Source of the DNA: an uncultured Phycisphaerales bacterium
GTDB taxonomy: Bacteria; Planctomycetota; Phycisphaerae; Tepidisphaerales; Tepidisphaeraceae
Assembly: GCA_963755915.1 (NCBI GenBank)
Contig: CAVWLP010000002.1
Span: forward strand, 3,648,001 to 3,712,000
Length of the DNA: 64,000 nucleotides
Direction of reading: 5' to 3'
Positions 12,375 through 61,207 of this stretch are shown here, one piece after another (within the stretch, counting starts at the first letter, position 1; each line of letters opens with the position of its first letter). The translations under genes and the position numbers were made by a program. The notes below the pieces were generated by a model. It worked only from the letters and a program-made list of their open reading frames with translations, made no database searches and was not told the DNA's origin.

Positions 12375-12496
12375 AACGCTTTTTATCCACGTCGCTTTTG
12401 GCATCCCTGGTCTGCGCGGCCGCAGCGATTTTGATTTCCGATCCGTCCCGCGCGCATCTTCGCTTACACTTCGCACAAATTAATCGCGAGGAAACG

Positions 12497-48891: not shown

Positions 48892-49113
48892 GATGCCGTC
48901 TTGATTGAAGTGACTTCTTATGCACTGAAACGATTGGGCACCCAAGCCGGACATGGCGAATGTTGGCAATCCCAACTCGATTCCTTCCCACCTGTTCACT
49001 CTTTTTTCGATCGCAATCTCAATGGCAAGCAACCGAACAAGAATTGTTGTCAATGCCATCATTTTTGAAGGTCGGCAAGCTTGGTCGCTCAATCCGAACT
49101 ATGGTTGATTGAA

Positions 49114-50767: not shown

Positions 50768-50912
50768 CATGCTCCCGCCGGTTAGCGAATCCCGGCAAGC
50801 GTCTTTCGCTACAAAACCAGCCCATCGGTAGAAATCTCGATTTTTCGCTTGATTTTTCGAATTTATGTGAAACAATTCATGGTCTCAAGACGTTTAGTCG
50901 ATGGAGAAAGCT

Positions 50913-50996
50913 ATGCGGCAACATTGGTATCCAGAAAATATGAGTGAGACAGCCAAACGATGCGGGTCATTCCGCCTCGATTTGGCCAATTTATAA
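50913..50996 (+). CDS. Putative leader peptide MRQHWYPENMSETAKRCGSFRLDLANL
   Basis: GGAG at 50903-50906, ATG 50913, TAA 50994-50996; followed directly by alternative hairpins and the tRNA array. Confidence 0.5.
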   Translation: MRQHWYPENMSETAKRCGSFRLDLANL

Positions 50997-51095
50997 ACTC
51001 CCTGCCGCGTCGGCCGGGAGTTCTTCCCGGCTGAAAGTAATCAACACTTAAATCCGGGACGCAATTGGAAATACAGCCGGGCGCTTGTTGCGTCC
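50996..51095 (+). promoter_or_regulatory. Attenuator-like set of mutually exclusive hairpins
   Basis: 50996-51007/51011-51022 competes with 51011-51020/51024-51033; CCCGGCTG (51026) also matches CAGCCGGG (51074), which lies inside GGACGCAA/TTGCGTCC (51057/51088). Confidence 0.5.
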
Positions 51096-51151
51096 TGCTG
51101 CCAAACAAGAGAGGTCCGCGGAATAACCCCGCGCTGATCCAATCTCGGTTC

Positions 51152-51226
51152 GCGCCTGTAGCTCAATTGGCAAGCAGCGCCGCGCTTACATCGCGGAGGT
51201 TGCTGGTTCAAGTCCAGCCTGGCGCA
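51152..51226 (+). tRNA. tRNA-Val(TAC)
   Basis: Anticodon arm CCGCG-CT TAC AT-CGCGG; T loop TTCAAGT; one acceptor mismatch. Confidence 0.85.
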
Positions 51227-51271
51227 TGAAAGGACAAAGGCCGTGAAAACGCCTGGAAAATCAGGCCTTTT

Positions 51272-51343
51272 ACGCTGTTAGCTCAGAGGCAGAGCACCCG
51301 CCCGATAAGCGGGAGGCCGGAGAGTCGAGACCTCCACGGCGTA
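51272..51343 (+). tRNA. tRNA-Ile(GAT), degenerate T arm
   Basis: CCCGC-CC GAT AA-GCGGG; T arm reads GGAGAGTCGAGACCTCC. Confidence 0.7.
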
Positions 51344-51354
51344 CTGAAAATCTC

Positions 51355-51429
51355 GCACTGGTAGCTCAATCGGATCAGAGCTCCGGTCTACGAAACCGGA
51401 GGTTGAAGGTTCGAATCCTTCCCAGTGCA
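51355..51429 (+). tRNA. tRNA-Arg(ACG)
   Basis: CCGGT-CT ACG AA-ACCGG; canonical arms. Confidence 0.95.
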
Positions 51430-51488
51430 CTGGTGTCGTAAGTGATTGTATCTAATTACGATGTATTTGTGGTTGCTGATAAGGTTTC

Positions 51489-51560
51489 GCACTCGTAGCT
51501 CAACGGCGGAGCCACCGGCTCTTAACCGGTGGGTTGCAGGTTCGAATCCTGCCGGGTGCA
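51489..51560 (+). tRNA. tRNA-Lys(CTT)
   Basis: ACCGG-CT CTT AA-CCGGT. Confidence 0.93.
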
Positions 51561-51614
51561 TGAAAGGAGAATGTCAGATGAATCGGTTCAGGAGAAAACG
51601 GTGCAAATAATTCC

Positions 51615-51689
51615 GCACCGGTAGCTCAACGGAATCAGAGCAACCCTCTTCTAAAGGGTCGGCTGGGGGTTCGAATCCCTCCCGGTGCA
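51615..51689 (+). tRNA. tRNA-Arg(TCT)
   Basis: ACCCT-CT TCT AA-AGGGT. Confidence 0.93.
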
Positions 51690-51701
51690 TGCGGACAGTG
51701 C

Positions 51702-51773
51702 GCACCGGTAGCTCAATGGCAGAGCCGCCGCCTTTTAAGCGGAACCATGCAGGTTCGATTCCTGCCCGGTGCA
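51702..51773 (+). tRNA. tRNA-Lys(TTT)
   Basis: CCGC-CT TTT AA-GCGG. Confidence 0.9.
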
Positions 51774-51789
51774 TGAAGAGAAAAGTTTC

Positions 51790-51864
51790 GGTTCAGTAGC
51801 CCAACCGGCAGAGGCGCCTGACTCAGAATCAGACTTAGTGCAGGTTCGAATCCTGCCTGGACCA
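51790..51864 (+). tRNA. tRNA-Leu(CAG), short variable loop
   Basis: CTGA-CT CAG AA-TCAG; only about 6 nt before the T arm. Confidence 0.85.
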
Positions 51865-51873
51865 TAGAAAAAA

Positions 51874-52111
51874 GTTGCGGTAGCTCAATCGGATTGGCTC
51901 TGTCTCATGAATCATCGCGCGGCCAGACGAAGTGGATTTCGTCCTCGGGCAAGGAGCGACGACGAGCAGTATTGAACGGAAATACGGCGAGGAGGAGCGA
52001 CGCCGGCCGAGGACGAAAGACACGAGTCGGGCCCGCGAGGATTCATGAGACAGAGCCGAGAGCGCGGCTCTCCGAAGGCCGAGGTTGAAGGTTCGATCCC
52101 TTCCCGCGACG
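51874..52111 (+). tRNA. tRNA-Arg(CCG) with ~164-nt hairpin inserted in the D loop
   Basis: GTTGCGG-TA-GCTC-AATCGGAT [51895-52058] A-GAGC-G-CGGCT-CT CCG AA-GGCCG-AGGTT-GAAGG TTCGATC CCTTC-CCGCGAC-G. Confidence 0.85.
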
Positions 52112-52126
52112 TGAAAGAAAAACATT

Positions 52127-52198
52127 GGGCCCGTCGTCTAACGGGAAGACTCCTGGCCTGCAACCAGGAAATGAGGGTTCGATTCCCTCCGGCGTCCA
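52127..52198 (+). tRNA. tRNA-Ala(TGC)
   Basis: CCTGG-CC TGC AA-CCAGG; G3:U70 present; one bulged C in the acceptor stem. Confidence 0.85.
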
Positions 52199-52205
52199 TC
52201 GGATT

Positions 52206-52279
52206 GCTTCGGTAGCCCAACCGGAAGAGGCGCGTGATCGAGGTTCACGTCAGTGCAGGTTCGAGTCCTGCCCGGAGCA
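52206..52279 (+). tRNA. tRNA-Leu(GAG), short variable loop
   Basis: CGTGA-TC GAG GT-TCACG; variable loop TCAGT. Confidence 0.85.
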
Positions 52280-52292
52280 CTGAAAGCGTTTC

Positions 52293-52366
52293 GCCGCGGT
52301 AGCCCAATGGCAGAGGCGGTGGTCTCAAGAACCGTTTGTGTGTGGGTTCAAATCCCACCCGCGGCA
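52293..52366 (+). tRNA. tRNA-Leu(CAA), short variable loop
   Basis: GTGGT-CT CAA GA-ACCGT; variable loop about 6 nt. Confidence 0.85.
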
Positions 52367-52426
52367 TGAAAGGAGAATCCGATGAGTAGCGGCTCATCAC
52401 AAAAAAATAGCGAAGACTCCGATTGC

Positions 52427-52510
52427 GGAGGGTTGGCCGAACGGTAAGGCATCCGTCTCGAAAACGGACATGGCGCACGCGCCTTGGGGGTTCGAATCCC
52501 TCACCCTCCT
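52427..52510 (+). tRNA. tRNA-Ser(CGA)
   Basis: TCCGT-CT CGA AA-ACGGA; long variable arm. Confidence 0.9.
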
Positions 52511-52563
52511 TCCGACTCGCGCAGAGCGCTCGGCCTGCCGTGAGCGAGCGCAGCGAGTCGAAC

Positions 52564-52652
52564 GGAGGGTTGGCAGAGTGGCCTAACGCGCCGGGTTGCT
52601 AACTCGGAAGGCTTTGAAAAGGGCCTCGAAGGTTCGAATCCTTCACCCTCCG
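52564..52652 (+). tRNA. tRNA-Ser(GCT)
   Basis: CCGGG-TT GCT AA-CTCGG; long variable arm. Confidence 0.92.
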
Positions 52653-52719
52653 CTGGATTTTGGGCGGTACGAAAATGGTTCGTCCCGCGAAGTGTTCTTT
52701 GACAATCAGGTGGCGTATT

Positions 52720-52792
52720 GCCGTCATAGCTCAGCGGAATGAGCGTCCGGTTGTCAACCGGAAGGCCATGGGTTCAACCCCCATTGACGGCG
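52720..52792 (+). tRNA. tRNA-Asp(GTC)
   Basis: TCCGG-TT GTC AA-CCGGA. Confidence 0.88.
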
Positions 52793-52797
52793 TTTTT

Positions 52798-52868
52798 GTG
52801 GATTCAGCTCCAAGGTAGAGCGGGGGCCTGAAGAGCCCCAGGGCTTGGTTCGATTCCAGGAGTCCACA
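52798..52868 (+). tRNA. tRNA-Phe(GAA)
   Basis: GGGGC-CT GAA GA-GCCCC. Confidence 0.88.
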
Positions 52869-52878
52869 TTGAAGCGAT

Positions 52879-52949
52879 GCGTCGGTAGTTCAGCGGTCGA
52901 ACACCGCTATGCCAATGCGGAGGCCCGGGTTCTATTCCCGGCCGGCGCA
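52879..52949 (+). tRNA. tRNA-Gly(GCC)
   Basis: CCGC-TAT GCC AAT-GCGG; T loop TTCTATT. Confidence 0.8.
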
Positions 52950-52962
52950 CTGAGATTGACGA

Positions 52963-53034
52963 GCAGTGATAACTCAGCCGGGAGAGTGCCGGTCTTCCAA
53001 ACCGGAGACGTGGGTTCGAATCCCGCTCACTGCA
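52963..53034 (+). tRNA. tRNA-Gly(TCC)
   Basis: CCGGT-CT TCC AA-ACCGG. Confidence 0.9.
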
Positions 53035-53049
53035 TAATGCGAGTTTGAT

Positions 53050-53122
53050 GCCGTGGTAGCTCAAAGGGTAGAGCGGTCGTCTCGTAAACGACAGATCGCC
53101 GGTTCGATCCCGGCCCGCGGCT
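53050..53122 (+). tRNA. tRNA-Thr(CGT)
   Basis: GTCGT-CT CGT AA-ACGAC. Confidence 0.93.
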
Positions 53123-53136
53123 CTTAGGGATATTCT

Positions 53137-53210
53137 GGGTGCGTAGCTCAATGGCGGAGCAGGGGCCTCATAAGCCCAAGGTTGTTGGTTCGAATCCAAC
53201 CGTTCACCCA
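53137..53210 (+). tRNA. tRNA-Met or Ile2 (CAT)
   Basis: GGGC-CT CAT AA-GCCC; two extra nt in the acceptor 3' strand. Confidence 0.8.
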
Positions 53211-53227
53211 TTTTTAGAAACTTTTAT

Positions 53228-53300
53228 ACAGGGATAGTTCAATCGGTAGAACGCTCGGCTCTGAACCGGGTTGCTGGAGGTTCGAATCCTTCTCCCTGAA
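53228..53300 (+). tRNA. tRNA-Gln(CTG)
   Basis: CTCGG-CT CTG AA-CCGGG; unpaired 1:72. Confidence 0.88.
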
Positions 53301-53301
53301 C

Positions 53302-53374
53302 TGAGCCGTAGTTCAATCGGTAGCAATGCCGGTCTTTGAATCCGGCGATCGTGGTTCGAATCCACGCGGCTCAA
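53302..53374 (+). tRNA. tRNA-Gln(TTG)
   Basis: CCGG-TCT TTG AAT-CCGG; U1:A72. Confidence 0.85.
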
Positions 53375-53384
53375 ATACCTTAAT

Positions 53385-53458
53385 ACCTTCGTGGTGGAAT
53401 TGGTACCACACTCGGTTGTTACCCGATGAGATTGCAGGTTCGAATCCTGCCGAAGGTG
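53385..53458 (+). tRNA. tRNA-Asn(GTT)
   Basis: TCGG-TT GTT AC-CCGA; G73. Confidence 0.85.
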
Positions 53459-53460
53459 TT

Positions 53461-53570
53461 AGCGGAGCGAGACGCTCCGCTAGAAGGTAGAAAGTAGAGA
53501 GTAGAAAGTAGACTGAAATCCCGTCTTCCCTACTTTGTACTTTCTACTCTCAACTTTCTCGCGCAGCGCC
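53461..53570. repeat. Palindromic intergenic element with AGTAGA-type repeats
   Basis: AGCGGAGCG-AGA-CGCTCCGCT, then purine-rich arm 53482-53511 complementary to pyrimidine arm 53530-53559; right end matches 28270-28289 in reverse complement. Confidence 0.6.
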
Positions 53571-53642
53571 GCTCTCGTCGTCTAATGGTCAGGATAACCG
53601 GCCTTCAACCGGAGAGTGTGGGTTCGATTCCCTCCGGGAGCA
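53571..53642 (+). tRNA. tRNA-Glu(TTC)
   Basis: CCGG-CC TTC AA-CCGG; D arm GTCT AATGGTC AGGAT. Confidence 0.82.
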
Positions 53643-53656
53643 CTGCAAGTTCAATT

Positions 53657-53730
53657 CAGCGTGTGGCGAAGCTTGGCATCGCGCGTGCCTCGGGCGCACG
53701 AGATCGAAGGTTCGAATCCTTCCACGCTGA
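53657..53730 (+). tRNA. tRNA-Pro(CGG)
   Basis: CGTGC-CT CGG GC-GCACG; C1:G72, A73. Confidence 0.93.
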
Positions 53731-53740
53731 CTGTTTTAGC

Positions 53741-53825
53741 GCGTAGGTCGCATAACTGGCATTGCAGCGGGCTGTAACCCCGCCGACCCAACGGGTTTTT
53801 GGGGGTTCAAATCCCTCCCTACGCA
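53741..53825 (+). tRNA. tRNA-Tyr(GTA)
   Basis: GCGGG-CT GTA AC-CCCGC; long variable arm. Confidence 0.92.
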
Positions 53826-53846
53826 TTGCGGCCAGAGGCCGCGAAC

Positions 53847-53919
53847 GCGCCGGCTGTTCCAGCGGTGGAACGCCCGCCTCCAAATCGGGAAACGGCAGGT
53901 TCGATCCCTGCCCGGCGCT
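53847..53919 (+). tRNA. tRNA-Trp(CCA)
   Basis: CCCG-CCT CCA AAT-CGGG; atypical positions 8-9 and discriminator. Confidence 0.78.
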
Positions 53920-53929
53920 GAAACTTTTT

Positions 53930-54001
53930 GAGGATGTGGCCGAATGGCAAGGCGCGGGTCTGCAAAGCCTGCTGATGCTGGTTCGAATCCAGTCATCCTC
54001 T
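53930..54001 (+). tRNA. tRNA-Cys(GCA)
   Basis: CGGGT-CT GCA AA-GCCTG; U73. Confidence 0.9.
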
Positions 54002-54003
54002 TT

Positions 54004-54078
54004 GTGGCCGTAGCTCAACTGGATCAGAGCACCGGGATGTGGCCCCGGTCGTTGTGAGTTCAAATCTCACCGGTCACC
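54004..54078 (+). tRNA. tRNA-His(GTG), no encoded G-1
   Basis: CCGGG-AT GTG GC-CCCGG; C73; T at position -1. Confidence 0.9.
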
Positions 54079-54124
54079 CTGAAAAAATACGCCCCCTGTT
54101 GTCGGTTTGTGAAAGGAGTTTGAG

Positions 54125-54385
54125 ATGACGCGTGCAACGCAATTTGACGTTTTGCCGGCCGATGTCGGCGCCGCAAGCGTTGCGGTGATTCACGTTCGGT
54201 TTGCCGGACAAAGCTTTGACGTTCCGCTGGCGAGCCTGGATGTCGGCGTCCAAAGCGCTGACGGCGCCATCAGGGCAGCCGTGGCCAACTGGCTGAGAGT
54301 GTCGCCGGCCCGTCTGGAGGCCTATGTGATCGACCGCCATGCCAACGGCAATCTGACGATTCGTCCCGAAGCGGTTTTCGGATGA
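54125..54385 (+). CDS. Small Gly-terminated protein, candidate ubiquitin/ThiS-like modifier
   Basis: AAGGAG RBS; 86 aa; strand-strand-helix-strand pattern (VIHVRFAGQSFDVPL...IRAAVANWL...NLTIRPEAVFG-stop); ThiF gene in the same unit. Confidence 0.7.
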   Translation: MTRATQFDVLPADVGAASVAVIHVRFAGQSFDVPLASLDVGVQSADGAIRAAVANWLRVSPARLEAYVIDRHANGNLTIRPEAVFG

Positions 54386-54397
54386 ATCGTGTTGCCG

Positions 54398-54564
54398 TGC
54401 CGCGGCCGGGACGCCGGGATCGCACCCAACGCCAGAAGCTTACAAACAAGGTTGGCACGGCGGGCAACCGCTGTGCCAGGGGTGCGAATCCCCCCAGAGG
54501 TCCTGGTTAGGACCGCAACAGATGCTTTTGTGACTCGTGCGATCGCGGCGTCCCGGCCGCGGCA
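54398..54564 (+). ncRNA. Y-RNA-like ncRNA unit 1
   Basis: Long closing stem TGCCGCGGCCGGGACGCCG..GATCGCAC / GTGCGATC..CGGCGTCCCGGCCGCGGCA; CCAACG-N4-AAGC-TTACAAAC ... GCTT-TTGTGACTC; T-arm-like GGGG TGCGAAT CCCC. Confidence 0.75.
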
Positions 54565-54589
54565 AAATTCAGGAGTTTTATGGATCGAG

Positions 54590-54772
54590 ATCGGCCGCCT
54601 GCGAATTGCGGCCCGCGCCCAACGATTGGAGCATACAAACTGGTTGCTTGTGGGGATCATTTTCCCGCAATGAAGGTTCGAATCCTTCCACCCCGTCTTT
54701 GAAGAACTGTGCGGGGTGCGAAAATATTTGCTCCCGCAACTTGCGCGAACCGCAATTCGCCGGCGATCCGAT
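54590..54772 (+). ncRNA. Y-RNA-like ncRNA unit 2
   Basis: Stem GCGAATTGCGG / CCGCAATTCGC; CCAACG-N4-GAGC-ATACAAAC ... GCTC-CCGCAACTT; T arm GAAGG TTCGAAT CCTTC followed by closed acceptor-like stem CACCCCG/CGGGGTG. Confidence 0.78.
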
Positions 54773-54805
54773 TGGAACTTAATCACGGAGACGCCGCCAA
54801 AACAT

Positions 54806-54969
54806 TCTGCAGTACACGCCGTACCCAACGGCGCGAGCATACAAACGTTGCTAACGTAGAGGTTACGGGTTCGAGTCCCGTCAGGCCAGCTTTCAATCAT
54901 TCGGGCCTGTAGCTCAATGGTAGAGCGCTAAAAAGTGGCTCATGCGACTTGTATGGCGTGTTCTGCGGA
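54806..54969 (+). ncRNA. Y-RNA-like (YrlA-architecture) ncRNA unit 3
   Basis: Closing stem and shared motif; T arm ACGGG TTCGAGT CCCGT, closed acceptor CAGGCC..GGCCTG, TA, D arm GCTC AATGGTA GAGC (T arm before D arm). Confidence 0.85.
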
Positions 54970-54987
54970 TTTTATGAAAGGAAGAGA

Positions 54988-55163
54988 TCGATTCGCCGAT
55001 GCCGCGCCTGCACCCAACGGCAGGAGCATACAAACTTGCGGGTTCGAATCCCGCCATTTGCGAATGCAAATGACGTCCATTTGGAAGGACACCTGACTCA
55101 CAATCAGGCGTTTAACAACGCACAGCTCGTGTGACTTGTGCGGGCGCGGCGCCGGTGAATCGA
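54988..55163 (+). ncRNA. Y-RNA-like ncRNA unit 4 containing a complete permuted cloverleaf (anticodon-like CAC)
   Basis: Closing stem and shared motif; T arm GCGGG TTCGAAT CCCGC, acceptor CATTTGC-GAAT-GCAAATG, D arm GTCC ATTTGGAA GGAC, anticodon arm CCTGA-CT CAC AA-TCAGG. Confidence 0.85.
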
Positions 55164-55185
55164 CTTGACGGAAAGGAGCAGCACC

Positions 55186-56835
55186 ATGACGAACATGAAC
55201 GCACACCTCACGACCGAACAGGACGCACGTCTCCGGCTGCTGAACACGCTGCTGACGACGCCGCACCGCAAGCTCCAGAAAGTTCACCCGGTGCATGAAG
55301 AAATCGCGGCCAACGATCCGCGCTTCTACGTGCGCCTCGCTTCCTGGTACTTCGACCACGGCGACGTTCGCGACCACAAGGAAATGTTCGTGGTTTCGCT
55401 GGTTTTGAGCGATTTCGAAGGACACCGCGACGTTGGATTGGCCCTGCTGCGCCAGCTCCCGCCGTACGAAGTGGGGCGGGTGCTGGACTTCATCAACGGC
55501 CGCAAGACAACCCGTAAGGTGATCGTGCGCACTCGCAAGGCGCGCAAGGACCGCGCGGCTGCGAAGGCTCAGCCGGGCCTGATCAATCGAATCGCGCGCC
55601 TGGTGACGGGAAACGCCGCGGAATCGGCGGAAGCCGGGCCGACCGAAGCAGCGCCGGCGCCGGAAATCAAGCTGGTGACGGAAACCTTCGGGCTCTTCCG
55701 CAACCCGCCGCGCTCGCTACGGACGGAAATCGTCCGCTACCTGCGTGAACGCGAAGCCGACGGCGAATGGTTCGACAGCACCGTGCTCGTTGCCCGCAAG
55801 GCGATCAAGCGGCTGTACGCGCTGAACCACGTGAAGCCGGGTGATCGCGCCCAGCGGATCCTCTTCGACGAAGATCCGCCGGCCGGCAGCCGGATTTACG
55901 CTTTGCGCAAGCTCGCCGCCGCAACCACGCCGGCGGAGCAGGCGCAGGCGATTATCGACAACGCGATTCCGTATCGAGTCGCCCAGTCGGTCGTCAAGCA
56001 GATGACGCCGACGATTCTGCTGGCCCTGATCGAGCGGATGAGCCCTCAGGAACTGATTAACAACGTCGCCTCGCTGACGAAGCGCGGCGCGATGGACAAT
56101 CCGGACCTGAAGGCGTTGATCGACCAGAAGCTTGAGCAGGCCCAAACGGCCCAGCGGGTTAGCGGGCTCAAGGCGCAGAAGGCGATTGAGTCGGCCGGCG
56201 CAACGGTGTCGCCGGACGTGAAGGCGAAGCTCGAAAGCGTCGCCGACGCGCAGATCAAGGCTAAGGGCCGGATCGACCGTCCCACGGCGCTGCTCATCGA
56301 CAAGTCGGGCTCGATGTCGCTGGCGATTGAACTCGGCAAGCGCATCGGCGCCCTGATTTCCGCGATCTGCCGCGCGGAGCTCTTCGTCTACGCGTTCGAC
56401 ACGATGGCTTACCCCATCGAGCGCGGCGGCGACGACCTTGCTTCGTGGGAAAAGGCGCTGGTTGGCATCAAGGCCGGCGGCGGAACGAGCTGCGGAGTCG
56501 CCGTCGAGGCGATGCGCATCCGCAAGCAGTACGTCGAGCAGATCATTCTCGTCACCGACGAGGGTGAAAACACGGCGCCGCTGTTTGTGCCCACGCTGCA
56601 GAAGTACCGGGAAACGGTCAAGGCCGTTCCCAACATCTGCATCGTTCGCGTCCCGCGCAGCGTGACGACGGTTGAGTCGAATTGCCGCGCGGCTGGTTTG
56701 ATGGTCGATGTGTTCCAGTTCGCCGGCGACTACTACTCGCTGCCGAACCTGGCGCCGCTCCTGAGCAAGCCGAGCAAGCTCGAATTGCTCATGGAGATCC
56801 TGGAGTACCCTCTGCCGAAGCGGAGGTCGGCGTAA
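55186..56835 (+). CDS. Ro60/TROVE-like helical protein with C-terminal vWA domain
   Basis: AAAGGAG RBS; basic helical N-terminal region (DPRFYVRLASWY, MSPQELINNVASL); MIDAS residues LLIDKSGSM, GGTS, ILVTDEGEN; adjacent to Y-like RNAs. Confidence 0.75.
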   Translation: MTNMNAHLTTEQDARLRLLNTLLTTPHRKLQKVHPVHEEIAANDPRFYVRLASWYFDHGDVRDHKEMFVVSLVLSDFEGHRDVGLALLRQLPPYEVGRVLDFINGRKTTRKVIVRTRKARKDRAAAKAQPGLINRIARLVTGNAAESAEAGPTEAAPAPEIKLVTETFGLFRNPPRSLRTEIVRYLREREADGEWFDSTVLVARKAIKRLYALNHVKPGDRAQRILFDEDPPAGSRIYALRKLAAATTPAEQAQAIIDNAIPYRVAQSVVKQMTPTILLALIERMSPQELINNVASLTKRGAMDNPDLKALIDQKLEQAQTAQRVSGLKAQKAIESAGATVSPDVKAKLESVADAQIKAKGRIDRPTALLIDKSGSMSLAIELGKRIGALISAICRAELFVYAFDTMAYPIERGGDDLASWEKALVGIKAGGGTSCGVAVEAMRIRKQYVEQIILVTDEGENTAPLFVPTLQKYRETVKAVPNICIVRVPRSVTTVESNCRAAGLMVDVFQFAGDYYSLPNLAPLLSKPSKLELLMEILEYPLPKRRSA

Positions 56836-56838
56836 TTC

Positions 56839-56871
56839 AGCGGCGCGGCTCAAAAAGCCCGCGCCGCTTTT
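56839..56871 (+). terminator. Intrinsic-terminator-like hairpin
   Basis: AGCGGCGCGGCT-CAAAA-AGCCCGCGCCGCT-TTT right after the vWA stop; U tract is short. Confidence 0.5.
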
Positions 56872-56884
56872 GGAAGGTCGTTAT

Positions 56885-57586
56885 ATGCGCTCGGACATGG
56901 CCAAAGTAATCGTGGAACGGCCCCGCAGAGGCGGCGGAATCCGTTATCCGCGCAGTCACCCGGATTCCCATCGATTGGACATCGAGGATTTCCGCAGTCG
57001 CCAGGGCATGCGCCGGCCGTGGCTCAGTTCCCACGCAAAGGGATTGAATGAAAACCTCGCGCCCCTGGAGCGCTATCTGCGAACCCACGTGGGCCGCCCG
57101 TGGGATGACATTTACAGCGAGATTTGCGAGCACATGAATCGCAATTCCGCCGTTCAACTGCACATCTGGCAGCACCTAATGCAATTTGTCTGCAGAGATG
57201 TTTATGTCACGCTCGGTTTGGTCAAGCCGTCATGGTGGCACGGCGCGGGAAGGTTTTATGTCGACCCGAGCACGGGAATATTGCGCGAAAATCTGTTCAG
57301 GTGGCGCTACCGGCGGCCCGAACCGAAGCCCGATCCAAACCGCGTTCCAGCGAGCGAGGATATCGAATATCGGCGAATTGAGGGCATCTGGTATGAATTG
57401 CGCTTGGCGCCGATTCCGAAGTTTCGCATCGGCTACGACTTCGCGATCAGAAAACATCTGACCGAAATCAGCGACGATCTCCTTCACAAGTTTTACGACC
57501 GACAGGTTTACGCCGCGAGGAAACGCCAATTGAACAAGAAAGAAATCAGAAAACTTGGACTGACAACGGCAGGGACAAAATCTTGA
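56885..57586 (+). CDS. Arg/aromatic-rich hypothetical protein
   Basis: MRSDMAKVIVERPR...LNENLAPLERYL..VGRPWDDIYSEIC...FYVDPSTGIL...KRQLNKKE; overlaps the next start codon. Confidence 0.7.
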   Translation: MRSDMAKVIVERPRRGGGIRYPRSHPDSHRLDIEDFRSRQGMRRPWLSSHAKGLNENLAPLERYLRTHVGRPWDDIYSEICEHMNRNSAVQLHIWQHLMQFVCRDVYVTLGLVKPSWWHGAGRFYVDPSTGILRENLFRWRYRRPEPKPDPNRVPASEDIEYRRIEGIWYELRLAPIPKFRIGYDFAIRKHLTEISDDLLHKFYDRQVYAARKRQLNKKEIRKLGLTTAGTKS

Positions 57587-58440
57587 AAAAGGAACTTCTT
57601 CAAACTCTTAAGAATCTTGCTGCCGCGGAGAATGCGTTCGTCGACATCGAATTCCTCGCCCCGGTCCTGCGCGGCTCCGGCGTCGCGGTAAAAATTGCCG
57701 GGGTCCGCTGCAACGTCGCGATTGATCCGCCCGATTTCCAGGGCTGGGGTGTCTTTCGCGCCGATTCCCTGACGAGCGCCGCTTTGCTTCGCGAAGCGAC
57801 CCCCACGCAGCGGCGAAACTATCTGCGTCTGCTTCCCTCGGTCCGCCTAATCGTTTGTGGCGGAAAGGCGAGCACTGCGATGGCCCTTCCCGCCAATCCC
57901 TCGGACACGCGCTTCTATTTTGCGGGACCGGTCTTTGTGCAGCTTTGCCCGAAAATCGATTTGTTCACGACGATAATGTGCCGGTTCTATGCCGCTCAAT
58001 TTTGGTTCGACAGTCTGGATTCGCGCACTGATCCCGCCGCCGCAGCGTACTTGCGGCGTGAACTGACGAACATGACCGAACCGAAAAATCTTTCCCGTAG
58101 GGGCGTAACCCGTGGCGAGCGATTCGCCTACGCCTTTGAATTTTCGCGCCGCGCCAGCGCAATTCTCGCCGACCGGCGGCATCGCGCCGACGTCCGCCTA
58201 AAGCAGGCGCTGGCCCATGCCGGCGCCATCCTGACCGATTTTTCCGAAGACCACGATTTGTTTCGCGTCGCTTATTTGGTCGACGGCCGCCGTCATCTGA
58301 GCAACGTGCGCAAGGACGATCTCACAGTTCAATCCGCCGGCATTTGCCTCGCCGGCCAGGACCGGAATTTCGATCTCGCGAGCCTGGTAGGAGTCCTTCG
58401 CGAGGGCGATTCCATGTCCAGATTTCCCCGCCGGCGGTAA
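57583..58440 (+). CDS. Hypothetical protein with C-terminal GICL motif (candidate divergent E2/UBC-like)
   Basis: DLTVQSAGICLAGQDRNFDLASLVGVLRE immediately upstream of the ThiF gene. Confidence 0.6.
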   Translation: MKKELLQTLKNLAAAENAFVDIEFLAPVLRGSGVAVKIAGVRCNVAIDPPDFQGWGVFRADSLTSAALLREATPTQRRNYLRLLPSVRLIVCGGKASTAMALPANPSDTRFYFAGPVFVQLCPKIDLFTTIMCRFYAAQFWFDSLDSRTDPAAAAYLRRELTNMTEPKNLSRRGVTRGERFAYAFEFSRRASAILADRRHRADVRLKQALAHAGAILTDFSEDHDLFRVAYLVDGRRHLSNVRKDDLTVQSAGICLAGQDRNFDLASLVGVLREGDSMSRFPRRR

Positions 58441-58460
58441 TCTGATTTCGAGGACGCTAC

Positions 58461-59114
58461 ATGCCCGGAGCCTTCCATCACGAATCCCTCTACCGCGGCC
58501 CCGAAGCGCTTGCGCGGCTGGCGTCGCTGCGCATCACCCTCTGCGGCGCCGGCGCGATCGGTTCGAACCTGGCCGACAACCTCGTCCGCCAGGGCGCGGC
58601 GAAACTGCGCGTCATCGACGACGACCGCGTCGAGCAGCACAACATTTCCACGCAAATCTACGGCGAATCAGATGTAGGCGTCTGGAAGGTCGAAGCCTTG
58701 CGGAACCATCTTTTCCGCGCCTGCGGCATCGAAATTGACGCCGTGCGGAAAAGACTCACCGCGCAAAACGCCGGATCGCTTCTGAAAGATGCCGATCTGG
58801 TTATCGATGCGCTCGACAATTCGCAGTCGCGCCAGATCGTGCAAGACCATGCGCGAGCAACCAATGTCCCGTGCATTCACATCGGCCTGTACGAAGACTA
58901 CTGCGAATCGATTTGGGACGAGCAATACCGCGTGCCCGCGGATCGTGCGAATCAGCATGACGTTTGCGATTATCCGCTGGCCCGGAACCTGGTACTGCTC
59001 GCTGTCGCGATTGCGTCAGAAACGATCGTGAAATGGCCCGCCACCGGCGAGCGTGCGAATCTCTCCGCGACGCTCAAAGATTTTGCGGTCAGGCCCCTGG
59101 TGCAGCGGGTTTGA
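58461..59114 (+). CDS. ThiF/MoeB/E1-family adenylyltransferase
   Basis: LCGAGAIGS, IDDDRVEQHNISTQ, KVEAL, VIDALDN; no CxxC zinc pairs; lone Cys in DVCDYP. Confidence 0.9.
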   Translation: MPGAFHHESLYRGPEALARLASLRITLCGAGAIGSNLADNLVRQGAAKLRVIDDDRVEQHNISTQIYGESDVGVWKVEALRNHLFRACGIEIDAVRKRLTAQNAGSLLKDADLVIDALDNSQSRQIVQDHARATNVPCIHIGLYEDYCESIWDEQYRVPADRANQHDVCDYPLARNLVLLAVAIASETIVKWPATGERANLSATLKDFAVRPLVQRV

Positions 59115-59123
59115 AACTGCTGA

Positions 59124-61207
59124 TCACTTCCCCGCCAATTGCGCAACCGCAGCGATAAGCTGCTGCGGCTCCACAGGCTTCGTGAGGTGCATCTGAAATC
59201 CCGCAGTGAGCGCGAATCCGGTCCTCCTCGCGCATAAGCAGTCAGCGCGATCGCCGGCGTATTCCCTCCGCTGGCGGCCGGAAGCTGCCGAAGCATCTGG
59301 ATCATCTGAAATCCATCTTCTCCCGGCATTGCGATATCGCTCACCAGCACGTGCGGCATGCATTTCCCCATGCATTCCATCGCTTCGCGAACCGAACTCG
59401 CCGCCGTGACCATCGCCTCCGCACGCGACAGAATTTCGCGAACCAGCTCGAGCGCATCGGGCTCATCATCGATAACGAGAACCTTCTTTCCCGATAGCTT
59501 GATGCCATTGACGGTATGAGGGGCATTGTTTTTCGGTGCGACGGCCGGCACGGAAGGCGCTTTGTGAAATGGCGACGTCGGCAGTGTCACGGTAAATGTG
59601 GCCCCACTTCCCAGCCCCGAACTGTGCGCCGCCACGCTTCCGCCATGCAGCTCGACGATATGCCGCACGATCGTCAGCCCGATGCCAAGCCCCCCGTGCG
59701 ATCGGGTCATCGTATTGTCCGCCTGGCGAAACCGGTCGAACACAAACGGCAGAAACGCGCCGTCAATTCCCTGCCCCGTATCCGCGATCTGAATCTGCGC
59801 GTGATGATTCACGGACTCGAGGCTCACGTGCACCTGCCCCTGCGGCGGCGTAAACTTCACCGCGTTCGCCAGCAGGTTCCACACCACCTGCTGGAGCCGG
59901 TCAGGGTCGCCGGAAATCTTCGCGCTTGCGCCCAATTCCACTTCCAGTTGGATATTCTTCGCGTCGGCCGCGGGCCGGATCGCGTCAACCGCCGACTGAA
60001 CGATCAGCTCCAGCGGCACATCCGCCATTTGCAGCCGCATCTTCCCCGAGCTGACGCGCGAAACGTCCAGCAAATCCTCAATCAATTTCGTCTGCGCCTT
60101 CACGTTCCGCTCGATGACGTCCAGGCCATGCGCGGCGTCATCAGGCAGTTTCTCGGTGCGCAAAATCTGAGTCCACCCGACGATCGCATTCAGCGGCGTC
60201 CGCAATTCGTGCGACAACGTCGCCAGAAATTCGTCCTTAATGCGATTGGCTTCGCGCTCTTGCGCAAAAATAATGTTCTGAATCGCGATCGAGGTGATCT
60301 GGGCAAGCTGCACAAGGATCGCCTCATCGTCGCTGGAAAACGAGTCCTTGCCGCGGTCCATCAGCAGAATCAGGCCGAGATTCTTGCCGTCGCGACCGCT
60401 CAGCGGCGCCGCCAGCAGCCCGCCCCGCGTCGTCGGCAGCTCCAGCTTGCGAATTATCTCCCAGTCCGGATGCTCGCGCAGCTCCGATTCGCTGAGCCGT
60501 ATCGCGATCGGCGATTGTGCGATGATCGTACCGGCCACGGGCTCAAGCTTGATCGGCCGGTTGCGCCACTGCGAGAAACGGTCCGAAAATGCCGCCGCCG
60601 CGCGGATCGGAGACGGCCGGTGCGTTTGCAATGGATCGGCCAGTATCAGCGAGCCGCAGAAATGGCTCCCGATCAGTTCCCGCGCATAGTCGGTAACCGC
60701 CCGGATCATCTGCTCCACCGACGGTGCGCTGTTAATGGCGATCGACGCGGTCGAGAGCATCTGAAGCTGCCCCGCTCGCCGGCGCAATGCTTCGCTCTGC
60801 CGCCGGGTTTGCGCCGTCATCTGGTAAAGCGAAACGAAAACCCCCACCTTGCTTCGCAAAACTTCCGGCGCAAACGGCGCGGTGAGGTAGTCGACCGCGC
60901 CGAGGCTGTATCCCTTGGCCACCAGCGGGTCATCCCCGAACGCCGTGATAAAGATGATCGGAATGTGCTGCGAGCTTGGGCGTTGCCGAATCAGCTCCGC
61001 GGTTTCAAACCCATCCATCCCCGGCATGTTCACGTCGAGAAGGATGACCGCAAAGTCTTCGTTGAGCAGGCATCGCAGCGCATCACGCCCGGTGTAGGCC
61101 CGAACGATCCGCTGGTCCAGGTCCTGTAGAACCGCTTCCAGCGCCAGGAGATTCTCAGGCTTGTCATCCACGATCAGGATGTTCGCCGGTGCGCCCGCTT
61201 CAGTCAT
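59124..61207 (-). CDS. Hybrid kinase REC-GAF-HisKA-HATPase-REC (frameshift near 59228)
   Basis: [41 protein letters not shown]-terminal AGFQMHLTKPV in a second frame. Confidence 0.9.

Follow-up and report, generated by a model that had tools for sequence, protein, structure and literature searches.

Known bacterial Ro60 (Rsr) systems include the rsr-yrlBA-rtcBA operon for RNA repair in Salmonella and the complex of Ro60, Y RNA, and PNPase in Deinococcus. In these systems, a ring-shaped protein with TROVE and vWA domains is encoded beside several Y RNAs, and the bacterial YrlA and YrlB RNAs combine a long protein-binding stem with a tRNA-like domain. YrlA RNAs are reported beside Ro60 in over 250 bacteria and phages, including some cyanobacteria (PMC4201824). 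Thermus phage phiLo also encodes a Ro60, with Y-like RNAs (Yrl1 and Yrl2) just upstream of the gene. The phiLo Ro60 was reported to recruit the host's PNPase, and hijacking of host RNases was proposed for the Thermus phage Ro60 (PMC12135203).

Two other kinds of systems are relevant. L-arrays are long, co-oriented, supernumerary, and horizontally acquired sets of tRNA genes; they are reported from Planctomycetes and Cyanobacteria, and induction under translational stress was reported in Anabaena (PMC8421152). And in ubiquitin-like conjugation systems of bacteria (Bil, Bub/6E, type II CBASS Cap2) and in sulfur-carrier pairs (ThiS-ThiF, MoaD-MoeB, TtuB-TtuC), a small protein with a free C-terminal glycine is paired with an adenylating enzyme of the ThiF family. 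A preprint on Asgard archaeal 'Nidhogg' viruses describes a Ro60 (TROVE+vWA), an RNA ligase, and three ThiF/E1-like proteins within the same viral genomes, but its accessible text does not describe these genes as neighbors or as a unit (10.1101/2021.07.29.454249).

A mobile Ro60 module

We analyzed a window of 64,000 nucleotides from the genome of an uncultured planctomycete (the whole stretch of DNA, to which all positions refer). The module that it contains is real, conserved, and horizontally mobile, and huge phages have it as well. The core of the module is a divergent Ro60 (TROVE+vWA), 1–6 YrlA-type Y RNAs, and a small Gly-ended protein that is a ubiquitin-like candidate (Table 1). The usual companion of this core is a tightly linked pair of genes, which encode a protein that we call OB-Cys and a minimal ThiF-type E1. 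In the planctomycete, a foreign and complete L-type tRNA array of 27 genes lies upstream of the module and is fused to it, and the array, the small protein, the Y RNAs, and the enzymes look like one co-oriented unit. Seven of the eight features listed by an initial annotation of this DNA are where it placed them, all on the + strand; the other was a leader ORF (see below). We found no published description of this combination as a unit.

Table 1. Features of the locus, with positions in the window.
Feature	Positions	Strand	Basis or remark
Untranslated region, probable promoter/leader	50768..51151	+	No ORF of at least 50 aa
L-type tRNA array, 27 genes	51152..54079	+	ARAGORN and Rfam
Pseudo-tRNA, remnant of tRNA-Arg(CCG) slot	52054..52125	+	Rfam and similarity to locus L005
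Small ubiquitin-like candidate, 86 aa	54125..54385	+	Ends ...RPEAVFG-stop
Y-like RNA U1	54398..54565	+	Fold z = -4.0; model R1 35.2 bits at 54413-54552 (whole-genome search)
Y-like RNA U2	54588..54772	+	Fold z = -3.1; R1 48.6 bits at 54606-54758
Y-like RNA U3	54806..54972	+	R1 117.1 bits; Rfam YrlA RF02553
Y-like RNA U4	54998..55155	+	Fold z = -3.2; R1 57.9 bits at 55001-55153
Divergent Ro60 homolog, 549 aa, ATG start	55186..56835	+	Fold match
Arg-rich accessory protein, 233 aa	56885..57586	+	Homologs only
OB-Cys ("GICL") protein, 285 aa, TTG start	57583..58440	+	Predicted model
Minimal ThiF/E1-type adenylating enzyme, 217 aa	58461..59114	+	Pfam ThiF

The tRNA array

The genes of the array are co-oriented, cover all 20 amino acids, and lack encoded CCA ends. 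The count of 27 is the union of 26 genes from ARAGORN and 26 from Rfam: the Ile slot (51272-51343) was matched by Rfam but missed by ARAGORN, and the Trp gene was called by ARAGORN but lies below Rfam's threshold. The genome has 83 tRNA genes, and the 57 outside the array have 45 anticodons. For every one of the 26 ARAGORN genes in the array, the genome has another gene with the same anticodon outside the array, and the two share just 54–79% identity. Each array tRNA is a divergent duplicate and the array is a supernumerary complete set, which matches the definition of an L-array as given in PMC8421152. The initial annotation had recognized such a set, but it counted 28 tRNAs, where we find 27 genes and one remnant. 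The remnant has a weak Rfam tRNA match (52054-52103, 22 bits, positions 9–63 of 71), and another locus with an array (L005) has a tRNA-Arg(CCG) region that 52059-52125 matches at 90% identity. The order of the array's genes is the same in L005 and in a third locus, L006.

The region upstream of the array probably holds a promoter or leader. A leader ORF had been suggested near 50849, but the sole + strand ORF that we saw in the region has 22 amino acids and is not a credible leader ORF. Similarity to the corresponding upstream region of L005 is confined to 50998-51036 (87% over 39 nt). We found no sigma-70-like site on the + strand upstream of the array.

Contrary to what had been supposed, the unit can do without the array: among 58 genome loci with at least 8 kb of upstream DNA, it is upstream in 17 and absent in 41. 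Furthermore, the delta plasmid of Nostoc PCC 7120, which is the one L-array plasmid that has been studied experimentally, has no Ro60-like match. The link between the function of the array and that of the module is therefore loose. The main text of one paper on arrays does not describe a ThiF, von Willebrand, or Ro-type protein beside them (PMC8421152), and the main text of another does not describe ubiquitin beside them (PMC10272220).

The Ro60-like protein and its Y-like RNAs

By its predicted fold, the vWA protein is Ro60-like, as first suggested. The model (pLDDT 83.3) has a helical TROVE-like ring and a vWA domain. The MIDAS-type motif of this domain is intact, and its residues (D372, S374, S376, T434, and D458) do not vary among 36 sequences. 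When we compared the model to known structures with Foldseek, the top 11 matches listed were all Ro60, Rsr, or TROVE proteins (E = 2.5e-11 to 3.5e-8, TM = 0.54–0.62), and the matches include the phage structures 9kop and 9l5y. Unlike the bacterial Ro60/Rsr proteins, the protein is too divergent for Pfam's TROVE model, which does not match it. Our profile of the family (A1) has a sole match among PDB sequences, to the TROVE protein of phage phiLo (E = 0.0024), which is the closest solved structure by sequence.

The four RNAs lie between 54398 and 55155; this 780-nt stretch folds into four long-stem domains (z = -12.2). From their relatives, we built a covariance model (R1) whose consensus structure has compensatory changes in 23 of 34 pairs. 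In the alignment, 94.8% of cells are paired, versus 76.2% in shuffles (0 of 500 reach the actual value) and 34–45% when slid. A search of the whole 6.6-Mb genome with R1 gives matches at the module's locus only. U3 has a full-length match to Rfam's YrlA (RF02553; 54838-54958, 50.7 bits, E = 2.5e-10), although below the gathering score of 69, and it has the permuted tRNA-like domain of the YrlA type (T arm, acceptor-like stem, D arm). U4 has a partial YrlA match (24.6 bits), with a T arm, an acceptor-like stem, a D-arm-like hairpin, and an anticodon-arm-like hairpin. U1 has a long terminal stem, a CCCAAC...ACAAAC / GACUCG motif, and a T-arm-like hairpin. The initial annotation's Y-like RNAs are indeed similar to Y RNAs and of the YrlA type, with a tRNA-like domain. 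As in bacterial YrlA and YrlB, a long stem is joined to a tRNA-like domain in the YrlA arrangement, but some of the module's RNA units embed a whole tRNA-order domain.

The module also differs from the bacterial Ro60/Rsr systems in having a Gly-ended small protein, OB-Cys, and an E1 instead of a linked RtcB or RtcA. RtcB is absent from the window, as had been noted, and the genome's single RtcB match is about 1.5 Mb from the locus. As in phiLo, the Y-like RNAs are just upstream of the Ro60 gene, but the accessible text of the phiLo report mentions no ubiquitin-like protein (Ubl), E1, or tRNA array (PMC12135203).

The Gly-ended protein, ThiF, and OB-Cys

The small protein has no match in Pfam, NCBIfam, or the PDB sequences, but its C-terminus is AV[FY]G-stop in all 68 of the homologous ORFs listed. 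ThiF matches Pfam's ThiF with 106.7 bits (cut-off 28.1, E = 1.4e-30); its Cys169 is invariant, its CGAGALG loop is conserved, and PADLOC's E1-E2 models match it in their E1 part only. As the initial annotation proposed, the two look like an E1-Ubl pair. Their predicted complex has a score of 0.87, versus 0.25 for the best of three controls. (Among solved complexes, 116 of 157 attained this mark, as did 2 of 215 mismatched pairs.) Contacts agree by at least 87% between runs, with a partner pLDDT of at least 92, and link residues 80–86 of the small protein to residues 29–34, 117–124, 141–149, and 168–173 of ThiF, beside the invariant Cys169. The C-terminal glycine is thus predicted to dock in ThiF's adenylation site, as in Ubl and sulfur-carrier systems. 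Because E1-Ubl complexes of other families are already solved, the score may reflect a general likeness to them rather than binding by this pair.

Unlike Bil, Bub/6E, and Cap2, the module has neither a UBC-type E2 nor a peptidase (JAB or other), and its E1 is not an E1-E2 fusion. Neither a deconjugating peptidase nor an E3 is present. The small protein has a single C-terminal glycine, versus the GG of ThiS, MoaD, and ubiquitin. Its other partner, OB-Cys, is from a new family, and the set is linked to an RNP instead of to known defense genes. The accessible text of the Bub preprint mentions no vWA or Ro60 (10.1101/2024.11.21.623953).

OB-Cys was labelled "E2-like" by the initial annotation. However, its model (pLDDT 83.5) starts with a helix, followed by two beta-barrels, of which the second is OB-like; a long helix and a beta-meander come next, and the tail is disordered. 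The fold matches listed are S1/CSD/S17/IF1/PAN-type barrels only. We rejected OB-Cys as a recognizable E2, as no UBC fold is among these matches. The tail (residues 250–285, pLDDT below 50) is highly conserved and contains an invariant G253-I254-C255-L256. OB-Cys belongs to a large, unannotated new family, with 1176 representatives at E ≤ 1e-3; 10 of the 11 members scanned have no Pfam family.

Conservation of the module

Co-occurrence in other genomes was set beforehand as a test, and the result was strongly positive, in Planctomycetes, filamentous Cyanobacteria, Abditibacteriota, and huge-phage contigs. With the Ro60-like protein, we located 80 genome loci. Of these, 72 have at least 2.5 kb of upstream DNA, and in 67 of the 72 the gene for the small protein precedes the Ro60-like gene on the same strand. 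Where at least 8 kb of downstream DNA is available (60 loci), OB-Cys is downstream of the Ro60-like gene in 45 and ThiF in 42. OB-Cys is not within 10 kb in 15 of the 60; five of five genomes of this kind have one copy elsewhere, which adjoins ThiF in three. Y-like RNA matches are present in at least 75 of the 80 loci, all on the gene strand among the 300 matches listed. (In Abditibacteriota, these RNAs are downstream of ThiF instead, so the position shifts but the linkage is kept.) In a sample of 61 genomes from the window's family, four have both the Ro60-like gene and OB-Cys, and the remaining 57 have neither. Viral contigs show the same linkage: the small protein comes before the Ro60-like gene in 10 of 11, and OB-Cys and ThiF come after it in 11 of 12. 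The megaplasmid of a cultured cyanobacterium, Kovacikia minuta CCNUW1, has an array (33 ARAGORN tRNA calls), the candidate Ubl, Y-like RNAs, the Ro60-like gene, OB-Cys, and ThiF in the same order. Contigs from the only RNA-library run match a relative at 90–99% identity and may derive from DNA.

Proposed role

From the parts that we observed, with their folds or families, the RNA covariation, the co-occurrence, and the predicted E1-Ubl docking, we infer RNP formation, a cysteine relay, a target, and a physiological trigger. We propose that the Ro60-like ring and the Y RNAs form an RNP that would handle tRNAs, tRNA-like RNAs, or misfolded RNAs when translation is under attack (by phage-host conflict, tRNA damage, or ribosome inhibitors). 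The copies of the set in huge phages shift the likely setting towards phage-host conflict. ThiF would adenylate the C-terminal glycine of the small protein, which would then pass to Cys169 of ThiF and/or Cys255 of OB-Cys. OB-Cys would stand in for an E2, and might reach the RNP via its nucleic-acid-binding-type barrels. The last step would be the tagging of some target. The relay via OB-Cys is a guess, since OB-Cys has no UBC fold among the matches listed and Cys255 is in a region that the model cannot place. Taken whole, a mobile Ro60/Y RNA/Ubl module that uses OB-Cys and ThiF for tagging when translation is attacked is our best explanation, and we believe it somewhat more than we doubt it.

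We also considered that the module might be takeover or counter-defense cargo of large phages, for which it would shield translation, reprogram it, or hijack the RNases of the host; chromosomal copies would be remnants or morons that travel with phage-derived tRNA arrays and have little or no host-directed function. The presence of the full set on viral contigs of 84–572 kb, and on a phage record of 595 kb, would fit with this, as would a quick, unrooted tree in which the planctomycete proteins adjoin eight viral ones (support 93). It would also fit with the match of A1 to phiLo, the published phage Ro60 with Y-like RNAs and PNPase binding (PMC12135203), and the patchy distribution, with 4 carriers among the 61 genomes of the window's family. 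However, in the part of the window that we covered, no phage structural or integrase genes adjoin the module, which lies between a DUF1559 gene and the gene of a hybrid histidine kinase, and GC content shows no break. Furthermore, the module's proteins are 66–80% identical across many planctomycete metagenome copies and all of its reading frames are intact, which speaks for selection in cellular hosts. We consider this account unlikely, but it is compatible with our proposal, not opposed to it.

Another possibility is that the small protein is a sulfur carrier of the ThiS/MoaD/TtuB type, adenylated by ThiF without any protein tagging. The cysteine of OB-Cys would deliver persulfide sulfur, and the thiocarboxylate would thiolate the array's tRNAs or the tRNA-like Y RNAs. 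Ubl-dependent thiolation of tRNA is established (TtuB/TtuC, Urm1/Uba4), and the setting is rich in tRNA and tRNA-like RNA. In NCBIfam, ThiF comes closest to adenylyltransferases for ThiS and MoaD, with every match below its cut-off, and the cyanobacterial small protein has 66 amino acids, similar to ThiS (about 66). But the conserved parts include no PP-loop thiolase (TtuA/NcsA/ThiI type), rhodanese, or cysteine desulfurase; the C-terminal glycine follows an aromatic residue instead of another glycine; and OB-Cys has no sulfurtransferase fold among the matches listed. We think it quite unlikely that the module works this way.

It is very improbable that chance alone made neighbors of three independent things: the array, the Ro60-like gene and its RNAs, and the ThiF pair. 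Most loci have no array upstream, and in a quarter of the loci OB-Cys and ThiF are not linked, but gene order and strand stay constant in four phyla and on viral contigs, the Ro60-like gene is present or absent together with OB-Cys in all 61 genomes, and the RNA family is in nearly all of the 80 loci. For the core of the module, chance is already contradicted.

The Arg-rich protein, whose stop codon overlaps the TTG start of OB-Cys, is in a variable position in about 20 of the 80 genome loci. None of its 586 homologs has a Pfam domain or a name, and its nearest Atlas clusters are largely viral.

A conserved neighborhood around the Ro60-like gene

Between 51152 and 59114 (+), the window contains an unbroken run of features, all in the same orientation: a tRNA array, a small protein with a C-terminal glycine (a candidate ubiquitin-like protein, or Ubl), four Y-like RNAs (U1 to U4), a Ro60-like protein, an Arg-rich protein, a protein with an invariant cysteine (Cys255) that we call OB-Cys, and an E1-type adenylating enzyme (ThiF).

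Features of the locus, with coordinates relative to the window
Feature	Coordinates	Strand	Description
tRNA array	51152-54079	+	27 genes (union of ARAGORN and Rfam)
Small protein ORF	54125-54385	+	86 aa, ends ...RPEAVFG-stop
ORF-free spacer between the small protein and the 549-aa ORF			780 nt
Y-like RNAs U1-U4	54398-55155	+	
Ro60-like ORF	55186-56835	+	549 aa
Arg-rich ORF	56885-57586	+	233 aa
OB-Cys ORF	57583-58440	+	285 aa, TTG start overlaps the stop of the Arg-rich ORF
ThiF gene	58461-59114	+	217 aa, 20 nt after the OB-Cys ORF

The initial annotation treated this run as a single system, and named beforehand a test of that idea: the genes should co-occur in other genomes. They do. We fetched 80 genome loci with the Ro60-like protein; their sources are Planctomycetes, a large number of filamentous Cyanobacteria, Abditibacteriota, and a single Acidobacteriota bin. 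Of the 72 loci with enough upstream DNA, 67 have the small protein upstream, on the same strand. Downstream of the Ro60-like gene, OB-Cys is found in 45 of 60 loci, ThiF in 42, and both in 42. We checked five genomes without OB-Cys within 10 kb, and each has exactly one copy elsewhere, with ThiF directly after it in three. Y-like RNAs matched in 75 of the 80 loci (among the 300 matches listed), always on the strand of the gene. Of the five loci that have none, three lack upstream DNA. In a sample of 61 genomes from the window's family, four have the Ro60-like gene. The same four, and none of the remaining 57, have OB-Cys, which is a pattern rather than a statistic because these genomes are kin. 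This is very probably a real conserved module.

The tRNA array is a looser partner of the module. Of the 58 loci with at least 8 kb of upstream DNA, 17 have 10 or more tRNA genes upstream on the same strand, and this count is a lower bound because several arrays run past the fetched DNA. The Arg-rich protein has 586 homologs, none of them named, and is an occasional member of the module with a variable position.

The layout differs in Abditibacteriota. There, the small protein abuts the Ro60-like gene (37–111 nt), and the Y-like RNAs, up to six in tandem, come after ThiF (L046 14193-15132, L017 13467-14055, L079 13508-13823, L052 13361-13514). Genes for tRNA-Tyr and tRNA-Ser are just upstream of the small protein. 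One complete genome (AP024152.1) has two copies of the module (L046 and L079).

A divergent Ro60-like protein

The 549-aa protein had been described as a Ro60-like vWA protein, and its predicted structure bears this out. In the AlphaFold model (pLDDT 83.3, pTM 0.75, from a 36-row alignment), helical repeats form a ring, and a vWA domain comes after it. The top 11 matches listed by Foldseek are all Ro60, Rsr, or TROVE proteins (E = 2.5e-11 to 3.5e-8, TM 0.54–0.62, about 550–600 columns). The best matches include Ro60 from Xenopus and human, Rsr from Deinococcus, and Ro60 from Thermus phage phiLo; isolated vWA domains come next. MIDAS-type metal sites have the motif DxSxS...T...D, and the corresponding residues (D372, S374, S376, T434, and D458) are invariant in 36 sequences.

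Pfam's TROVE family (PF05731) has no matches in the whole genome, and a Pfam scan of the Ro60-like protein at E ≤ 10 gave nothing but MgtE_N at 0.027. No NCBIfam, PHROG, or PADLOC family matched the protein either. Three of the four close homologs that we scanned match vWA_Ro60 (PF25045) near its cut-off (25.4–28.7 vs. 27.7 bits), and the sole solved relative found by a profile search is the TROVE protein of phage phiLo (E = 0.0024). By its modeled fold, the 549-aa protein is a member of a divergent Ro60 clade, which family-based surveys would overlook. The Ro60-like gene is adjacent to the Y-like RNAs, and the protein is a putative RNA-binding protein.

A Lys/Arg-rich insertion of about 70 residues (residues ~105–170) sets the planctomycete and Abditibacteriota copies apart. 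It is modeled as a β-hairpin with low-confidence loops and is missing from the 477-aa cyanobacterial copies.

Y-like RNAs with the YrlA arrangement

The spacer before the Ro60-like gene has a fold z-score of −12.2 (0 of 20 shuffles were as good) and forms four domains, each with a long closing stem. The z-scores of the single cores are −4.0 for U1, −3.1 for U2, −1.9 for U3, and −3.2 for U4. U1–U4 share a 5' CCCAAC...GAGCAUACAAAC, a T-arm-like hairpin, and a 3' GACU(U/C)G(U/C)GCG. U3 aligns to the full length of Rfam's YrlA model (RF02553) at 50.7 bits (E = 2.5e-10), which is under the gathering score of 69; U4 has a partial match (24.6 bits), and the YrlA search returned nothing for U1 or U2.

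Related loci carry units of the same kind, and we aligned 25 units from 21 sources. The RNAalifold consensus has a terminal stem, an internal loop, and a second stem, followed by a T arm, an acceptor-like stem, and a D arm. YrlA RNAs have this arrangement, and covariation supports it: 23 of the 34 consensus pairs have compensatory changes, and 94.8% of cells are paired vs. 76.2% in 500 shuffles (none of which reach the observed value). If the partner is slid by 1–3 columns, then the paired cells fall to 34–45%.

A covariance model built from the relatives' units (R1) gives 117.1 bits for U3, 57.9 for U4, 48.6 for U2, and 35.2 for U1. Across the whole genome, it has no match beyond the locus, except for partial cross-matches to tRNAs of the array. 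R1 also gives about 50 bits on pairs of true tRNAs (at 51611-51779, for instance). Because of these cross-matches, R1 matches of under about 55 bits inside arrays, and some of the viral matches, are ambiguous.

Two variants of these RNAs resemble tRNAs further. U4-type units have one more hairpin, whose stem is 5 bp long and whose 7-nt loop is shaped like an anticodon loop (window 55090-55108; L005 9751-9929; L006 9590-9733). The loop is CUCACAA in the window and CUUUAAU or CUGAUAA in relatives. This hairpin might mimic an anticodon arm, for example as a decoy or sensor for anticodon nucleases. In a second class of units, a complete domain in tRNA order (D arm, anticodon-like arm, T arm, and a 6–7-bp acceptor-like stem) lies inside a Ro60-type stem (L019 8682-8879, L044 8725-8861, L038 8764-9011, and many Microcoleus loci). 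ARAGORN annotates these units as tRNAs and gives them odd anticodons or ones of only two letters (tt, tta "stop", ctt, or att).

The small protein and ThiF as a putative Ubl and E1

ThiF matches PF00899 at 106.7 bits (cut-off 28.1). Its CGAGALG loop and residues D116, D119, N120, R124, and Cys169 are invariant. E1 enzymes adenylate a C-terminal glycine, and Ubl and ThiS/MoaD proteins have a free C-terminal glycine, usually as a diglycine. In all 68 homologous ORFs of the small protein, a single terminal glycine precedes the stop, after RPEAV[FY]. So the small protein has the free glycine but not the diglycine: its penultimate residue is F or Y. The small protein has no sequence match in Pfam, NCBIfam, or PDB, and a profile search of PDB gave only chance-level results.

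When two ThiF chains and the small protein were modeled together, the complex score was 0.87, vs. 0.25 for the best of three controls; because E1–Ubl complexes have already been solved, this indicates likeness to E1–Ubl pairs rather than binding. Of 157 solved complexes, 116 reached the mark that we used for this score, as did 2 of 215 mismatched pairs. Contact agreement across the runs was at least 87%, and the partner's pLDDT was at least 92. In the predicted placement, residues 80–86 of the small protein lie against residues 29–34 (the nucleotide-binding loop), 117–124, 141–149, and 168–173 of ThiF, and adjoin Cys169.

Known bacterial systems of this kind look different. In Bil, Bub/6E, CBASS type II, and 6A-MBL, the E1 is accompanied by an E2 of the UBC type, often fused to it, and by a peptidase (JAB or another), parts that were not recognized in the module in the window. 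Only the E1 part of PADLOC's E1-E2 fusion models matched ThiF. Across the module's proteins, PADLOC and NCBIfam matched only ThiF; the other four have no significant PADLOC family (there is a weak Cas6b match, E = 0.034).

OB-Cys is not recognizable as an E2

The initial annotation listed OB-Cys as a GICL protein and as E2-like. The catalytic cysteine of E2 enzymes is preceded by an HPN-type motif, and the OB-Cys alignment has no such motif before Cys255. No E2/UBC chain is among the matches listed for OB-Cys by Foldseek or VIA-align wide (a statement about the families listed). Because of these two results, we dropped the E2 label. That OB-Cys is a functional stand-in for an E2 is a guess.

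The model of OB-Cys (pLDDT 83.5) has an N-terminal helix, two small β-barrels, a long helix, and a β-meander. Cys255 (...QSAGICLAGQD...) and the best-conserved stretch (G253–V271) are in a tail with pLDDT under 50. Foldseek's single match at E ≤ 0.001 is a cap subunit of the exosome (TM 0.16), followed by S1, cold-shock, and Mpa/Arc barrels. For residues 84–156, VIA-align wide found OB barrels of the ribosomal S17, IF1, eIF5A, and PAN-N types, with a best Z of 7.3, which is within the range of common arrangements. A profile search of PDB gave only chance-level results, and the ESM Atlas scores (0.83) were uninformative. The family has 1176 representatives at E ≤ 1e-3 and 411 at E ≤ 1e-30; the best 150 listed have 195–405 amino acids. 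Ten of the 11 members that we scanned have no Pfam family, and the other has an added zinc ribbon.

A spare set of tRNAs of foreign origin

ARAGORN and Rfam each find 26 tRNA genes in the array. The Rfam-only gene is at 51272-51343, and ARAGORN's tRNA-Trp is under Rfam's threshold. The initial annotation counted 28 tRNAs, of which 27 stand. The 28th slot (52059-52125) is merely a remnant, with 90% identity to the tRNA-Arg(CCG) region of a related locus (L005) and a partial Rfam tRNA match of 22 bits. A leader ORF had been placed before the array as well, and we found no ORF of 50 amino acids or more on the + strand of 50768-51151. Just 39 nt of that region resemble the sequence 5' of the array in L005.

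All 20 amino acids are represented in the array. We counted 83 tRNA genes in the whole assembly (6.6 Mb, 81% complete). The 57 genes outside the array, with 45 anticodons, are a full housekeeping set. Each of the 26 ARAGORN genes in the array has a non-array gene with the same anticodon, at only 54–79% identity. None of the array genes encode CCA. The array is a foreign spare set, a divergent duplicate of a complete housekeeping set.

The array matches the definition of the L-array class of long supernumerary tRNA arrays, as given in the available text of Santamaria-Gomez et al. (PMC8421152). It is long and co-oriented, it duplicates a complete housekeeping set, and its distribution is patchy and horizontally acquired: the Ro60-like gene to which the array is linked in the window is present in 4 of 61 genomes of the family and is absent from the same-genus genome that we searched. 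The order of the array is identical in the window and in related loci L005 and L006. The same source lists Planctomycetes and Cyanobacteria among the carriers of L-arrays, and describes the L-array of Anabaena as silent until translation is impaired (such induction is known only for Anabaena).

The array's three tRNA-Leu genes (51790-51864, 52206-52280, and 52293-52366) are 74–75 nt, vs. 82 nt for the closest-matching non-array tRNA-Leu. Because they are so short, they do not have the long variable arm. Short "Leu" genes are also found in the related arrays of L005, L006, and cyanobacteria, and their identity and function are uncertain. In contigs of related strains from soil and peat metagenomes (runs X5 and X6), single slots are dropped or swapped (regions 51865-52126 and 53460-53570, with skips such as 51893 to 52059 and 53458 to 53571). 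The array thus gains and loses single tRNA genes between close relatives.

Copies of the module in phages and on a plasmid

The record for a 595-kb uncultured phage has the full set, with 17 tRNA genes nearby. In the IMG/VR set (contigs of mostly 84–572 kb), 10 of 11 have the small protein upstream, and 11 of 12 have both OB-Cys and ThiF downstream. Y-like RNAs match in 9 of 14 viral loci (E ≤ 1e-5), some of which are perhaps cross-matches to tRNAs. In a quick unrooted tree, the planctomycete Ro60-like proteins adjoin eight viral ones (support 93), the sequences from the window, L005, and L006 are closest to each other (98), and the cyanobacterial proteins, together with that of the Acidobacteriota bin, make up a group apart (97). 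That bin's protein (L059) is nested within the cyanobacterial clade and reflects either a recent transfer or a mis-binned contig.

In the cultured cyanobacterium Kovacikia minuta CCNUW1, a 1.2-Mb plasmid carries the array (33 tRNA calls at the locus), the small protein, Y-like RNAs, the Ro60-like gene, OB-Cys, and ThiF, in that order. The delta plasmid of Nostoc PCC 7120, which bears the only L-array that has been studied, is part of the collection that was searched and has no match to the Ro60-like protein.

The proposed role of the module

Ro60 rings bind the stems of Y RNAs and the ends of misfolded RNAs, and Y RNAs serve as tethers between Ro60 and an effector, for example PNPase (via its S1/KH domains); YrlA-type RNAs are tRNA mimics (available portions of PMC4201824 and PMC12135203). 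We propose that the Ro60-like protein and U1–U4 form RNPs that would handle tRNA-like RNAs when translation is under attack. The small protein would be activated by ThiF, and Cys255 of OB-Cys would accept the activated small protein. OB-Cys, through its barrels, may be the effector that is tethered by the Y RNAs. Some target would then be tagged, and in lineages with an array, replacement tRNAs would come from it. Because copies of the module are found in phages, we suggest that its original setting was a conflict between large phages and their hosts over tRNAs.

This mechanism (the RNP, activation by ThiF, transfer to Cys255, and tagging) is tentative, and we would put it at somewhat less than an even bet. 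Taken as a whole, from the parts, the two folds, the covariation of the RNAs, the tight linkage, and the predicted E1–Ubl docking through to the steps that we have worded conditionally, our account is somewhat more likely than not to be right.

We also considered that the module might be phage cargo with little or no host function. This fits with the viral copies and is compatible with much of our proposal. However, the genes are intact, and they are conserved at 66–80% across many planctomycete copies, so we consider cargo unlikely. Or, the small protein and ThiF might be a sulfur-carrier pathway that serves RNA thiolation. But the conserved parts include no thiolase, rhodanese, or desulfurase, and the small protein does not end in a diglycine; we consider this explanation unlikely, too. 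Chance adjacency of the parts is contradicted, for the core, by the linkage data and is very improbable.

In a more novel reading, the small protein is not, or not solely, a tag for proteins: ThiF would make its acyl-adenylate, and OB-Cys, bound via barrels of an RNA-binding type, would transfer the small protein to a tRNA or a processed tRNA-like Y RNA in the Ro60-like ring. (The formation of an acyl-adenylate is the same chemistry as the activation of amino acids by tRNA synthetases.) This is a long shot. If true, RNA itself would carry a ubiquitin-like modification, with which huge phages and L-array bacteria would mark, protect, or decoy tRNAs in conflicts over translation.

Relation to known systems

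Ro60–Y RNA particles are conserved from bacteria to humans. To our knowledge, their roles in bacteria are known only via RNases and the RtcB repair operon. In the divergent clade, the constant partners of Ro60 are a putative ubiquitin-like activation arm and a new Cys-bearing family. This suggests that, in prokaryotes and their viruses, RNA quality control is tied to Ubl chemistry. The clade (over 2600 database relatives of the Ro60-like protein) and the OB-Cys family (at least 1176 representatives) escape surveys that are based on Pfam's TROVE family. The module is also a first gene context for the enigmatic L-arrays, with a recurrent neighborhood and a possible origin in huge phages. The system is open to testing: the module is on a megaplasmid of the cultured K. 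minuta CCNUW1, and its five small components are expressible in E. coli.

Several of the parts are already described, as far as the available text of each source goes: bacterial and phage Ro60 accompanied by YrlA RNAs (PMC4201824; PMC12135203), TROVE proteins of certain jumbo phages (PMC7824862), L-arrays (PMC8421152; PMC10272220), and bacterial Ubl systems (preprint 10.1101/2024.11.21.623953). The nearest hint that we found is a preprint on Asgard viruses (10.1101/2021.07.29.454249), which reports, in the portion available, Ro60 and three ThiF homologs in the same genomes, unconnected. Within the main texts and excerpts that our literature search covered, we found nothing that connects Ro60-type RNPs with a Ubl and its E1, with the OB-Cys family, or with L-arrays. 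We regard this as a Ro60–Y RNA system whose enzymatic arm is new; one of its protein families is also new, as is the gene context that it gives to L-arrays.

Surroundings of the locus

The GC content is 0.53–0.63 over 44–64 kb, with no sharp island boundary. Synteny with a genome of the same genus (G018) showed no empty insertion site, and the flanking histidine kinase and sigma-54 activator genes have only paralog-level matches there (≤50% identity). Predicted promoters and terminators were not above shuffles, and none on the + strand were useful. We considered the HTH protein at 48649-49092 (−) as a conserved regulator and rejected it, as it has no relative in any of the loci. Neither a 173-aa ORF nor a DUF1559 gene is conserved alongside the module. 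In contigs from a metatranscriptome (X10), 25 pieces match the array and U3 at 90–99% identity, with the uncovered parts being uninformative; because the source is a relative and DNA carry-over is possible, we draw no conclusion about expression.

The convergent gene for a hybrid histidine kinase (59100-59420, −) appears to have a frameshift near 59200. Its receiver domain has its canonical end (...KPVEPQQLIAAVAQLAGK-stop) in another frame, at 59124, 10 nt from the stop of ThiF. The long ORF instead reads on and shares 145 nt with ThiF. Either the assembly is in error here or the gene is a pseudogene.

Cyanobacterial loci have additional genes within the unit. At L044, a RibD_C/DHFR-like protein and a GNAT acetyltransferase lie between the array and the small protein (5721-7719). 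Between its Ro60-like and OB-Cys genes (11309-14179) are a 397-aa protein (with a weak match to NucS_C) and DUF433 and DUF4189 proteins. The TrcR regulon of Anabaena, as described in the available part of PMC10272220, also holds GNAT genes.
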